Below the pieces are notes generated by a model. That model had not been told where the DNA came from and made no database searches. It worked only from the letters and a program-made list of their open reading frames with translations. Source: Escherichia phage RB32. Taken from it: DNA of 64,000 nucleotides. The stretch is from the sequence record NC_008515.1; one strand, written 5' to 3'. The position numbers were made by a program, and so were the translations under genes. Shown here piece after piece: positions 9,418 through 59,762 of this stretch; the stretch's first letter is position 1; each line of letters begins with the position of its first letter.

Positions 9418-9423
9418 AACAAA

Positions 9424-9445
9424 GGGACCTTTCGGTCCCTTTTTA
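9424..9445. terminator. Bidirectional terminator hairpin (GGGACC-TTTC-GGTCCC) between convergent genes 24 and rnlB
   Basis: Perfect stem with T-run on + strand and T-rich tail on - strand. Confidence 0.65.
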
Positions 9446-12900: not shown

Positions 12901-14412
12901 ATGACTGACATTAAAGTACATTTTTATGATTTTAGTCACGTGAGAATTGATTGTGAAGAAAGTACATTTCATGAACTCCGTGATTTCTTTAGCTTTGAAG
13001 CTGATGGGTATCGTTTTAATCCGAAGTACAGATATGGCCACTGGGATGGACGAATCCGTCTTTTAGATTATAATCGTCTTCTTCCATTCGGCTTAGTCGG
13101 GCAAATTAAAAAGTTCTGTGATAACTTTGGCTATAAAGCCTGGATTGACCCACAAATTAACGAAAAAGAAGAATTATCAAGAAAAGATTTTGATGAATGG
13201 CTTTCTAAATTAGAAATCTATTCAGGAAATAAAAGAATTGAACCACACTGGTATCAAAAAGATGCAGTGTTTGAAGGATTAGTTAATCGTCGTAGAATTC
13301 TTAATCTTCCAACATCCGCTGGTAAATCGTTAATTCAAGCTTTGCTTGCGCGATATTATTTGGAAAATTATGAAGGTAAAATTCTTATCATTGTTCCAAC
13401 AACTGCTCTGACAACTCAGATGGCTGATGACTTTGTTGACTATCGTTTATTCAGTCATGCAATGATAAAGAAAATCGGTGGCGGAGCATCAAAAGATGAT
13501 AAATATAAAAATGATGCACCAGTCGTTGTTGGTACATGGCAAACTGTAGTAAAACAACCGAAAGAATGGTTCTCACAGTTTGGAATGATGATGAATGATG
13601 AATGCCATCTTGCTACAGGAAAAAGTATTTCATCTATCATATCAGGTCTAAATAACTGCATGTTTAAATTTGGTCTATCAGGTTCATTACGTGATGGCAA
13701 AGCCAATATCATGCAGTACGTTGGAATGTTTGGTGAAATATTTAAGCCAGTAACGACTTCTAAATTAATGGAAGATGGACAAGTAACTGAGTTAAAAATT
13801 AATAGTATTTTTCTTCGTTATCCTGATGAGTTTACTACTAAATTAAAGGGAAAAACTTACCAAGAAGAAATAAAAATTATTACTGGGCTTAGTAAAAGAA
13901 ATAAATGGATCGCTAAATTAGCTATTAAGCTTGCGCAAAAAGATGAAAACGCTTTTGTCATGTTTAAACATGTATCGCATGGTAAAGCTATTTTCGATTT
14001 AATTAAAAATGAATACGATAAAGTTTATTACGTATCAGGGGAAGTTGATACCGAAACCCGCAATATAATGAAAACCTTAGCTGAAAATGGTAAAGGAATA
14101 ATTATAGTAGCTAGTTATGGTGTATTTTCTACTGGTATTTCAGTTAAAAATCTGCATCACGTTGTTTTAGCGCACGGTGTTAAATCAAAAATCATTGTAT
14201 TACAAACAATCGGTCGTGTATTACGTAAGCATGGTTCTAAGACAATAGCAACAGTCTGGGACCTCATAGATGATTGTGGTGTTAAGCCAAAATCTGCTAA
14301 TACGAAAAAGAAATATGTTCATTTGAACTATCTTTTAAAACACGGCATTGATCGTATTCAGCGCTACGCAGATGAAAAATTTAATTACGTAATGAAAACA
14401 GTTAATTTATAA
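12901..14412 (+). CDS. uvsW: UvsW SF2 DNA helicase
   Basis: 503 aa; Walker A LPTSAGKS and DECH box visible. Confidence 0.93.
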   Translation: MTDIKVHFYDFSHVRIDCEESTFHELRDFFSFEADGYRFNPKYRYGHWDGRIRLLDYNRLLPFGLVGQIKKFCDNFGYKAWIDPQINEKEELSRKDFDEWLSKLEIYSGNKRIEPHWYQKDAVFEGLVNRRRILNLPTSAGKSLIQALLARYYLENYEGKILIIVPTTALTTQMADDFVDYRLFSHAMIKKIGGGASKDDKYKNDAPVVVGTWQTVVKQPKEWFSQFGMMMNDECHLATGKSISSIISGLNNCMFKFGLSGSLRDGKANIMQYVGMFGEIFKPVTTSKLMEDGQVTELKINSIFLRYPDEFTTKLKGKTYQEEIKIITGLSKRNKWIAKLAIKLAQKDENAFVMFKHVSHGKAIFDLIKNEYDKVYYVSGEVDTETRNIMKTLAENGKGIIIVASYGVFSTGISVKNLHHVVLAHGVKSKIIVLQTIGRVLRKHGSKTIATVWDLIDDCGVKPKSANTKKKYVHLNYLLKHGIDRIQRYADEKFNYVMKTVNL

Positions 14413-14427
14413 GGGCTTCGGCCCTTT
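14413..14427 (+). terminator. Hairpin GGGC-TTCG-GCCC immediately after the uvsW stop, merging into the uvsW.1 SD
   Basis: Stem-loop then TTTGGAGAAAAAG-ATG seen directly. Confidence 0.45.
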
Positions 14428-14437
14428 GGAGAAAAAG

Positions 14438-16024: not shown

Positions 16025-16650
16025 TATAGTAACTCAAAGAACTCTTTGAGGCCTCTTATTACGTGAGCATGGGTTTTTCCACACTCTGGACACTTAATTG
16101 GAACAGCCAAATAAACGGTAGGCTTTAAAAGCATATCTTTTATAGCTACAATATCTGACTCTGTGATGATAGAATATAAATCTTCTAGTTCCTTTTCATT
16201 TAAGTCTTCAACTGGAATGCTTTCCCCGTTAGCATGAATCGTTTCTATACATGATACTATCATGTGGGCTATATTTTTATCATCAAAAATTTTAGGGTAT
16301 CGGAATTTAATTTTAATGTCACCCAGTGTATACCAGAGGTCTTCTGGTGCATCTATTTGTGTGTGTAATAGATTTATATGGGTTGGTATTTCAGTTCCAC
16401 AGGTGCACTTCCAGGAGTTTTCGTGATTAACTTCGCCGAGAGAATGTGCCCATAAATGAATCAACAATAGTTCTGATTCTTGGCGGTTTAAATCTTTTGC
16501 ATTTGTGCAGTCTTTGATTAGCTTTTTAACAATTACTTCTACAGAACCATTATTTTTGGCAGTAATAAGTTCTAGATATTCTTTAAGCGTGAATGCGCGA
16601 CAATTGATTATTTTAGAACCAACTCTCACATCAAATTTGTATTCATACAT
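16024..16650 (-). CDS. 26: Baseplate hub protein gp26
   Basis: 208 aa; synteny. Confidence 0.9.
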
Positions 16651-22940: not shown

Positions 22941-22944
22941 CAAT

Positions 22945-22962
22945 GGGGACCTTTCGGTCCCC
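22945..22962. terminator. Hairpin GGGGACC-TTTC-GGTCCCC after gene 54, followed by a T-rich tract on +
   Basis: Perfect 7-bp stem; same motif family as the gene 23 and 24 terminators. Confidence 0.6.
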
Positions 22963-22968
22963 ATATTT

Positions 22969-38689: not shown

Positions 38690-40277
<1,588 letters not shown>

Positions 40278-40285
40278 AATAAAAT

Positions 40286-40299
40286 GGGCCTTGCGGCCC
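40286..40299 (-). promoter_or_regulatory. Stable hairpin (GGGCC-GCAA-GGCCC) between the SD-like TAAGGAG and the denA ATG
   Basis: On - strand: nrdB stop TAA-GGAG, then the hairpin, then AUUUUAUU-AUG. Confidence 0.5.
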
Positions 40300-40304
40300 A
40301 CTCC

Positions 40305-41483
40305 TTAAAAGTATTTTTTAAAACTCATCATAACTTTATCATCAACATCATTATCAATCTGTGCAACAAGGTAAGATGACAGTTCTACTTCTTGTGGCGC
40401 GGATTGAACATTATCAGAATTAAGATATTCACGAATCCAAGGATATGGGTGTTTAACCGGAGCATCGGTAATTGGGCATGGAAGACCACACTGTTTCATA
40501 CGAGATACAGTTAAGTAATCAATAAAGCTCCACATGCTATTTGTATTTAATCCAGGAACATCGCCATCTTTAAATAAATGAACTGCCCAATCTTTTTCTT
40601 GGCGGTTAACTTCCATGAAAATATCAACTGCTTCTTGTTCACACTCTTGAGCAATTTTAACCCATTCATCACCATCAGTACCGGATTGAAGTTGACGAAT
40701 AATATATTGGGTGCCTTTAAGGTGAAGCTGTTCATCGCGTGCAATGAACTTCATAATCTTGGCATTACCTTCCATGATTTCCATGTTCTTATGGAAGTTA
40801 AAGGTACATGCAAAAGATACATAAAAACGAATAGCTTCTAAGGCATTAATAACGTGTAAACAGAGGTAAAGAGACTTCATTAAAGCACATTTAGCTTCGG
40901 CTTCTTGTTTAATAGCTCGGTTTAAACGAAAATCAGCATCAGGAGATTCTTTAGCTAGTTCTACAAATTCTTTAGCGTTTTCCCATTCACGGGTTTTAAC
41001 CAAGACATCATCATAATAGCGACCGATAGATTCAGCACGTTTCATGATAGCTTCATCTAATACAATCTCATCAAATACCTTCGATGGATCAGTATAAAGA
41101 TTTCGCATGATATGAGTATATGAACGACTGTGAATAGTTTCACTAAAAGTCCATGTAGCAACCCACGTATCAAGGCTTGGGTCTGAAATTAATGACATAA
41201 GTACAGCAGACGGCGCACGACCCTGAATGCTATCCAAAAGTGATTGATACTTCAAGTTGTTAGTAAAAATATTTTGCTGATACTGAGGAAGCTTATTAAA
41301 CTGTGCAGCATCCATCATTAAGTTTACTTCTTCCGGGCGCCAGAAAAATGATAAGGACTTTTCTGTAAGTTCTTCAAATACTCGATGCCGTTGAATATCA
41401 TAACGCGCAATACCAAGACCTGAACCAAAAAACATAGGTTCTTTTAAAACATCAACTGGGTTTGTATTAAAAACTGTGCTCAT
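40305..41483 (-). CDS. nrdB: Ribonucleotide reductase small subunit NrdB (uninterrupted, no intron)
   Basis: Single 392-aa ORF with no interruption. Confidence 0.93.
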   Translation of the reverse strand: MSTVFNTNPVDVLKEPMFFGSGLGIARYDIQRHRVFEELTEKSLSFFWRPEEVNLMMDAAQFNKLPQYQQNIFTNNLKYQSLLDSIQGRAPSAVLMSLISDPSLDTWVATWTFSETIHSRSYTHIMRNLYTDPSKVFDEIVLDEAIMKRAESIGRYYDDVLVKTREWENAKEFVELAKESPDADFRLNRAIKQEAEAKCALMKSLYLCLHVINALEAIRFYVSFACTFNFHKNMEIMEGNAKIMKFIARDEQLHLKGTQYIIRQLQSGTDGDEWVKIAQECEQEAVDIFMEVNRQEKDWAVHLFKDGDVPGLNTNSMWSFIDYLTVSRMKQCGLPCPITDAPVKHPYPWIREYLNSDNVQSAPQEVELSSYLVAQIDNDVDDKVMMSFKKYF

Positions 41484-46852: not shown

Positions 46853-47254
46853 CTACTTTTTGAAAGTTTTTCGCAAAAGTTCAATGATTTCATCTACATT
46901 ATTTTCGTCAACAATGCAGTGAATTTTTGTTACGCCAGAAACCTTGTCTTTGACTTCATCCTCTTCAGAAGTCGGTTCTTTATATTCGCGGAAACAATAA
47001 AACTCTTCTTCACTAAGTTCAAAATAATCATCACCCATACCATCATCATTATAAATTTCACCATTAGCACAAATGATTTCGGTTACATAATCAAAGCCAT
47101 CTAAACTTGATATTGATTTAACTTCAAACCAACCGCCATTTTCTTGAATGATGCCGACCATACTAGCATTTGATGAACTAATATCAATGAAAGATTTAAT
47201 ACGATGTGGATTTAACTCGTATTTTTTGCCGATTTCCATTTTGATTTTCCTCAT
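46853..47254 (-). CDS. Hypothetical protein (frd.x cluster)
   Basis: 133 aa ORF. Confidence 0.6.
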   Translation of the reverse strand: MRKIKMEIGKKYELNPHRIKSFIDISSSNASMVGIIQENGGWFEVKSISSLDGFDYVTEIICANGEIYNDDGMGDDYFELSEEEFYCFREYKEPTSEEDEVKDKVSGVTKIHCIVDENNVDEIIELLRKTFKK

Positions 47255-47285
47255 TTTAATAGGGGCTTAATAGCCCCCTTGATAA

Positions 47286-59730: not shown

Positions 59731-59736
59731 CAACAA

Positions 59737-59752
59737 GGGGCTTTGCCCCTTT
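59737..59752 (+). terminator. Hairpin GGGGC-TTT-GCCCC after gene 37, merging into the gene 38 SD
   Basis: Stem-loop then TTTGGAGAAAATT-ATG; same architecture as the uvsW/uvsW.1 junction. Confidence 0.45.
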
Positions 59753-59762
59753 GGAGAAAATT

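Follow-up and report, generated by a model that had tools for sequence, protein, structure and literature searches.

In a 64,000-nucleotide (nt) stretch of the Escherichia phage RB32 genome (NC_008515.1; hereafter the window), the endonuclease II gene denA follows nrdB across a short junction in which a stable hairpin separates the only Shine-Dalgarno (SD) sequence from the start codon. We propose, with moderate confidence, that translation of denA starts from a split initiation region bridged by this hairpin, as described for T4 genes 25 and 38. The denA site would then be a probable third split ribosome-binding site of this kind, with its hairpin probably doubling as a leaky terminator. The proposal is carried by the anatomy of the junction, covariation in the hairpin stem, a conserved geometry, the absence of any other SD sequence and a conserved ATG. 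The denA instance appears to be undescribed, while the mechanism itself is already established for genes 25 and 38.

In the proposed mechanism, UAAGGAG, the sole SD sequence, overlaps the nrdB stop codon and in linear form would be too far from the AUG, at 23 nt. A very stable tetraloop hairpin of 14-16 nt fills the gap and, once folded, would be looped out of the mRNA path, bringing the spacing to 7-9 nt. The 30S subunit would then initiate at AUG 40277, either by binding de novo or by staying tethered to the SD sequence after terminating at the nrdB UAA; the overlap between the SD sequence and the nrdB stop fits reinitiation by a tethered 30S. We infer that folding is needed for efficient denA initiation, that reinitiation contributes and that partial termination of transcription occurs. 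A spacer whose only effect is to offset its own length would not be retained on that account alone, and a second role for the hairpin is therefore to be expected. This role probably lies at the RNA level; in T4-type phages the hairpin would most likely act as a leaky intrinsic terminator of nrdA-nrdB transcripts or stabilise their 3' ends, and so hold expression of the nuclease gene low.

Layout of the nrdB-denA junction and its conservation

Around the junction (40150-40450), the sequence shares 100% identity with Enterobacteria phage RB33, and about 500 Tequatrovirus records match it at 95-100%. The genes nrdA, nrdB (41483-40305), denA and rnlA follow one another in this order on the minus strand, and the junction mRNA (40307-40275) reads UAA-GGAG-U-GGGCC-GCAA-GGCCC-A-UUUUAUU-AUG, preceded by UAC UUU and followed by AAA GAA (Table 1). 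The extended SD motif is predicted to form a duplex of -8.7 to -8.8 kcal/mol with the 3' end of 16S rRNA. Next to it, the stem arms GGGCC (40299-40295) and GGCCC (40290-40286) enclose the loop GCAA (40294-40291), and a U40300-A40285 pair extends the stem to 6 base pairs (bp). The surrounding 91 nt fold at z = -2.57, and weak pairing of the UUUUAUU tail with GGAG is possible through G-U and A-U pairs. A sequence-only reading of the window had described this order of SD sequence, hairpin and AUG, with spacings of about 23 nt unfolded and about 9 nt folded. Each element was located on the minus strand as claimed. Counted from the last G of GGAG to the A of AUG, the spacing is 23 nt in linear form and 7 nt (6-bp stem) or 9 nt (5-bp G/C stem) with the hairpin looped out.

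Table 1. Elements of the nrdB-denA junction, in window coordinates
Feature	Position	Strand	Remarks
nrdB stop UAA	40305..40307	-	5' part of the extended SD sequence UAAGGAG; from the open reading frame list, the sequence and the RB33 annotation
SD core GGAG	40301..40304	-	only SD sequence of denA; forms UAAGGAG with the stop codon
Hairpin U-GGGCC/GCAA/GGCCC-A	40285..40300	-	6 bp, GNRA tetraloop, free energy -11.6 kcal/mol
U-rich tail UUUUAUU	40278..40284	-	spacer between hairpin and AUG; also a candidate terminator U-tract
denA start AUG	40275..40277	-	136-amino-acid protein, N-terminus MKEIATEY
denA coding sequence	39867..40277	-	endonuclease II, GIY-YIG family
In-frame GTG	40299..40301	-	used as the start of denA by the T4 reference record; rejected here as the true start

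This layout is rare within the window. The 89 annotated gene starts were scanned blind for a weak near SD sequence combined with a strong SD sequence 16-35 nt upstream and an intervening hairpin, and only gene 25 and denA matched. Recovery of gene 25, whose split ribosome-binding site is published, serves as a positive control. At the gene 26/25 junction (about 16025-16062, minus strand), GAGG-c-CUCAAAG-AGUU-CUUUGAG-UUACUAUA-AUG, the GAGG motif is followed by 1 nt, an 18-nt hairpin and an 8-nt tail. G/C-rich hairpins as such (at least 5 bp with at least 4 G/C pairs) are common, with 43 in the window compared to 9.6 ± 3.5 in shuffled sequences; they are largely intergenic and often have UUCG or GAAA loops. 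Where such hairpins stand between closely spaced cistrons, at uvsW/uvsW.1, 37/38, RB33_205/30.6 and frd.3/frd.2, the order is always hairpin, SD sequence, AUG, so the order at denA is not the default. The frd.3/frd.2 junction (47252-47285) was considered as a further split case and rejected, as a normal GAGGAAA SD sequence sits 3' of its hairpin.

For a wider comparison, denA loci were drawn from the GenBank phage collection and IMG/VR and the sequence 5' of the conserved ATG was compared. The comparison set comprised 30 distinct junction types that lie upstream of denA and either follow nrdB or bear a hairpin. One layout recurs in 27 of them: a stop codon, an AAGGA(G)-type SD motif 0-4 nt 5' of the stem, a hairpin, a tail of 6-10 nt and AUG. 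These junctions come from at least nine named genera (Tequatro-, Mosig-, Dhaka-, Gelderland-, Winkler-, Gapriver-, Marfa-, Jiaoda- and Karamvirus), as well as from Serratia phages PS2 and Muldoon and Yersinia phage TG1. The layout stays constant among the 27 types while stem, tail and flanking codons diverge. Measured from the AGG/GAG core, the spacing between SD sequence and AUG is 21-29 nt unfolded, where anything above about 15 nt was counted as beyond the functional range, and 6-14 nt (mean 8.4) looped out. Together with the blind scan, in which the same signature otherwise picked out only gene 25, this conservation supports the split SD architecture put forward in the sequence-only reading.

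None of the 27 tails contains an SD sequence; with the 16S 3' end they form duplexes no stronger than -0.1 kcal/mol, compared to -3.9 to -9.3 kcal/mol for the upstream motifs. Tails are kept in length and not in sequence (UUUUAUU, ACUUUAUU, UUAUUGCU, UCUGUU, GUAAAGCU, AUUUCAU and others). In PS2 and Muldoon (loci L053/L054, 570-603), the SD sequence, hairpin, 8 nt and AUG are retained although neither tail (GUAAAGCU, AUAAAGCU) is rich in U, so that the geometry is here separated from terminator function. An AAGG in the loop and 3' arm of the T4 hairpin, given as a second ribosome-binding site in X04140, was rejected as a functional SD sequence, being sequestered in the stem and absent from orthologues with UUCG loops.

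The hairpin itself carries a signature of selection. In an alignment of 24 distinct hairpins anchored on their loops, double-sided changes were found in 6 of 7 stem pairs and 91% of cells were paired. Compensatory cells numbered 30, compared to 9.7 ± 2.6 in shuffles, and the observed covariation was reached by none of 500 shuffles; sliding the alignment register makes the signal collapse. Stem variants include GGGCC/GGCCC, GGGAC/GUCCC, GGGGC/GCCCC, GGGAGAC/GUCUCCC and CAGGGC/GCCCUG. Loops are of extra-stable types: T4-type phages have GCAA or GUAA, and the other phages have UUCG or, rarely, UUAG or UUUG. By this comparative evidence, the hairpin at the denA junction is under selection and is not a chance feature. 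No Rfam family reached its gathering score at the hairpin, the best being L20_leader with 22.3 bits against the 58.7 needed (E = 0.11).

Three exceptions depart from this layout. In Citrobacter phage CkP1 and the Krischvirus group, a GAGG SD sequence of their own stands downstream of the hairpin. In Yersinia phage fHe-Yen9-01 (L049, 560-603) there is neither SD sequence nor hairpin, and the nrdB TGA overlaps the denA ATG (ATGA); homology of this phage to other Tegunavirus phages starts at the denA ATG, which suggests a recombination joint. An ATGA overlap without a hairpin is also present in Aeromonas phages (L015-L017, L063-L066), where the gene overlapping denA is not nrdB. This upstream neighbour is a small hypothetical gene, itself located downstream of a thymidylate synthase gene. 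Such overlaps suggest that translation of denA is, as a rule, coupled to that of the upstream cistron.

Several points weigh against a split initiation region. The 5' arms of these phage hairpins are purine-rich and thus SD-like themselves, and Krischvirus keeps UAAGGUG 5' of its hairpin despite having its own downstream SD sequence; part of the apparent SD conservation could therefore be a by-product. Weak SD sequences occur in about 10-15% of the genes in the window anyway. In T4-type junctions, folding predictions leave GGAG mostly bound to the UUUU tail (probability of being unpaired about 0.1 at 37 °C), which could inhibit initiation instead of helping it. As CkP1, Krischvirus and fHe-Yen9-01 show, the split layout is not a requirement for expression of denA. 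The searchable literature yielded no experimental work on the translation of denA or on 3' ends of transcripts at the junction, and no described denA hairpin, terminator following nrdB or usable T4 3'-end map, although an earlier mention is possible.

Possible termination and regulation at the hairpin

The nrdB/denA site was not listed by a consensus terminator scanner, probably because extension of the stem over G-U pairs loses the U-tract. For this reason, terminators were scored with a script of our own, of the d'Aubenton-Carafa type (after d'Aubenton-Carafa et al. 1990 and Lesnik et al. 2001), whose scores serve only to compare sites. With its 6-bp stem followed by UUUUAUU, the window hairpin scored +24.7. 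End-of-operon hairpins scored +40 (gene 32), +34 (30.9), +30 (gene 24), +14 (hoc) and +10 (gene 23), and the class in which a hairpin precedes an SD sequence scored -13 to -22. Several GenBank records annotate a terminator at the nrdB/denA hairpin. Partial termination there is plausible in T4-type phages, judging from these scores.

The same features would suit the main rival account, not raised in the sequence-only reading, in which the hairpin does nothing more than terminate nrdA-nrdB transcripts intrinsically or stabilise their 3' ends. Expression of denA would then come from rare read-through and the adjacency of GGAG would be incidental. Folding of the hairpin would not assist translation, which could, for example, be coupled to termination at nrdB or begin on the A/U-rich tail independently of an SD sequence. 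Consistent with this, the score is similar to those of the gene 32, 30.9 and gene 24 terminators, GenBank annotations place a terminator at the site, and the hairpin belongs to the strongly enriched class of intergenic G/C hairpins. Weak terminators are known regulators in the T4 nrd region, as in mobE, with 30-50% termination (PMC2790892). The presence of a hairpin in Krischvirus and CkP1 together with a downstream SD sequence also points to a hairpin function independent of SD bridging.

In the spacer between denA and rnlA (39815-39866, minus strand), aTGCTTcca followed after 12 nt by TACTAT resembles a MotA-box middle promoter before rnlA. If this MotA-type promoter is real, termination upstream of denA would affect denA alone, and this confinement would also favour a pure terminator. 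A T4 multi-omics paper classes denA RNA as 'middle' and nrdB and rnlA RNA as 'early', with DenA protein detected, which is not decisive.

Other findings argue against termination as the sole function. Only 15 of the 27 orthologous junctions score above zero, and several low scorers (Mosigvirus -43, L034 -30, PS2/Muldoon -24, L036 -23) do not resemble terminators and yet keep the hairpin with 6-10 nt to the AUG. No promoter fits between hairpin and AUG, so denA mRNA must include the hairpin and efficient termination would silence the gene. The SD-free tails and the canonical looped-out spacing would also be left unexplained. We therefore regard a terminator with no part in translation as somewhat unlikely. 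Across the sequences compared, translational geometry is the invariant property of these junctions, whereas terminator strength, as scored, varies.

Both functions might also be combined in one device, the hairpin of this 30-nt junction attenuating transcription in a translation-sensitive manner and bridging a split ribosome-binding site as well. A ribosome at the nrdB stop, 5 nt before the stem, would cover the 5' arm and block folding of the terminator, so that RNA polymerase would read into denA only while nrdB is translated. When the ribosome leaves, the hairpin would snap shut, and the SD sequence beside the departing 30S would then lie 7-9 nt from the AUG, allowing reinitiation. The ATGA overlaps that replace the hairpin in fHe-Yen9-01 and the Aeromonas phages fit a general translation of denA by coupling. 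We consider this combined device unlikely.

The sequence-only reading had also raised the possibility that formation of the hairpin senses temperature. The probability of the core G/C pairs is predicted to be at least 0.96 from 15 to 90 °C; since the core is predicted to stay folded over this range, hairpin formation cannot sense physiological temperature, and a thermosensor that works by melting of the hairpin was rejected. A different form of control could arise from the flanks. In the minimum-free-energy structure given by RNAfold the stem is prolonged over GGAG/UUUU, reaching -16.4 kcal/mol compared to -11.6 kcal/mol for the core, and such an extended helix might act as a negative translational regulator by hiding the SD sequence and spacer, keeping a toxic nuclease low or making its expression temperature-dependent. 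In the RB33/T4 type, the SD sequence has a predicted probability of being unpaired of about 0.04 at 25 °C, which grows to 0.13 at 42 °C, and like pairing between SD sequence and U-rich tail is predicted in orthologues including L044, L051/52 and L055.

However, this temperature change is small, and the G-U extension is weak, falling below the duplex between SD and anti-SD sequence (-8.8 kcal/mol). Pairing of this kind arises easily by chance between a purine-rich motif and a U-run, and it is not conserved: across orthologues the predicted probability of an unpaired SD sequence ranges from 0.01 to 0.84, with 0.68-0.84 in L030, L036 and L058 and 0.3-0.46 in several genera. In fourU RNA thermometers, a run of four U residues pairs with the purines of the SD sequence. 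The denA UUUU can likewise pair with its SD sequence, but in contrast to a fourU element this pairing is predicted to respond only slightly to temperature and lacks conservation, and the core is not expected to melt. On these predictions, a negative regulator at this site appears improbable. RegB cleavage at GGAG and RegA binding at the U-rich AUG region were also considered as possibilities.

Start codon of denA

According to the sequence-only reading, an annotated GTG start at 40301 would place the hairpin inside the denA coding sequence, and AUG was to be preferred. The GTG annotation holds for the T4 reference record AF158101.6 (L069, 3018-3452) and RefSeq T4p229, in which denA starts from GTG (435 nt, 144 amino acids). 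It does not hold for the RB33 record, for X04140, which is the original T4 entry, or for many further phage records, all of which start denA from ATG and give a protein of 136 amino acids.

Comparison between genera bears out the preference for ATG. Both this codon and the N-terminus that follows it are conserved across genera. An in-frame start at the GTG position is limited to Tequatrovirus (GTG), Dhakavirus (ATG) and one other lineage (GTG), and in most genera (Mosig-, Winkler-, Marfa-, Jiaoda- and Karamvirus, PS2/Muldoon and others) there is no in-frame start between the upstream stop and the conserved ATG. The spacer is not a constant multiple of three, and its frame relative to denA varies between genera. 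Because the GTG overlaps GGAG, it would have no SD sequence at a usable distance. On comparative grounds, ATG 40277 is the supported start of denA.

Translation from GTG 40301 would yield a 144-amino-acid DenA with the hairpin within its coding sequence. This GTG is in frame with denA with no stop in between, it is the start used by AF158101.6 and RefSeq T4p229, and Dhakavirus has an in-frame ATG at the same place that is used in the Bp7 record. Set against this are the lack of a counterpart in most genera, the varying frame of the spacer and the overlap with GGAG, as well as the crystal construct of PDB 2WSH (136 amino acids, E118A), in which a His tag is followed by MKEIATEY. A functional GTG start is thus very improbable. 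In practical terms, the comparative data speak against the 144-amino-acid GTG annotation of denA in the T4 reference and RefSeq.

Known split sites and other hairpins of the window

The structures at genes 25 and 38 cut the spacing from 27 to 11 nt and from 22 to 5 nt, respectively, and mutations that destabilise them lower initiation (PMC3014915). The split, or 'accommodated', initiation region of gene 25 was described by Nivinskas et al. (1999) and Malys and Nivinskas (2009), as reviewed in PMC3014915. Like gene 25, denA has an SD sequence more than 20 nt from its AUG, a hairpin lying wholly between the two and a tail of 7-8 nt; in both cases, the upstream cistron ends at the junction and related phages conserve the stem. 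In gene 25 this stem is A/U-rich and lacks a U-tract, whereas that of denA is G/C-rich, has a GNRA or UUCG tetraloop and is followed by a U-tract, resembling a terminator. The denA SD sequence also lies outside the upstream coding sequence, overlapping only its stop codon, in contrast to that of gene 25. While the gene 25 layout is reported to be limited to close T-even phages (PMC3014915), that of denA extends to at least nine genera. The gene 25 site has been shown experimentally; that of denA is known here from sequence comparison. Gene 38 shares the looping-out principle, and its linear spacing of 22 nt is close to the 23 nt of denA (PMC3014915). The 37/38 junction of the window is ordinary (hairpin, GGAG, AUG) and hence offers no direct comparison with gene 38.

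The denA hairpin also resembles T4 intrinsic terminators and intercistronic hairpins in stem composition, UUCG or GNRA loops, U-rich 3' flank and position after a stop codon. C(UUCG)G hairpins were first noticed in T4 mRNA (PMC4371310). Its score in T4-type phages is comparable to those of intrinsic terminators, yet many denA orthologues lack a U-tract of terminator grade. Unlike at T4 intercistronic hairpins, the denA SD sequence stands 5' and not 3' of the hairpin, with the AUG 7 nt past the stem. Within the T4 nrd region, the weak internal terminator of mobE has a short stem and a short U-tract and is conserved with compensating changes (PMC2790892). It tunes a nuclease gene downstream of nrdA, as the denA hairpin is a candidate to do. 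The mobE terminator differs in lying inside a coding sequence and in having mapped 3' ends, and RB33-type phages lack mobE.

Confirmation at denA would bring the natural split ribosome-binding sites of T4 to three. That of denA would be the most widely conserved among them, with at least nine genera, and the first whose bridging hairpin also has terminator anatomy. It would provide a compact natural case of a single RNA structure serving both transcription and translation. Tools for genome annotation and for predicting ribosome-binding sites should accept an SD sequence 20-30 nt upstream of a start codon when a stable hairpin intervenes. The principle is not new, and the denA case is useful for T4 biology, reference annotation and prediction of ribosome-binding sites.

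Further observations concern the window as a whole. The RB33 record KM607001 is not identical to the window base for base along its entire length, and some of its gene coordinates, such as those of gene 21 and asiA, miss start codons in the window. Hairpins between convergent genes, for example 24/rnlB (9421-9442) and 54/alt.-3 (22943-22964), resemble bidirectional terminators. The uvsW/uvsW.1 (14411-14437) and 37/38 (59735-59762) junctions, both on the plus strand, carry near-identical cassettes consisting of AAGGG(G)C, a loop and GCCC(C)UU, then U-GGAG-AAAA. Their similarity suggests a repeated module of hairpin plus SD sequence.

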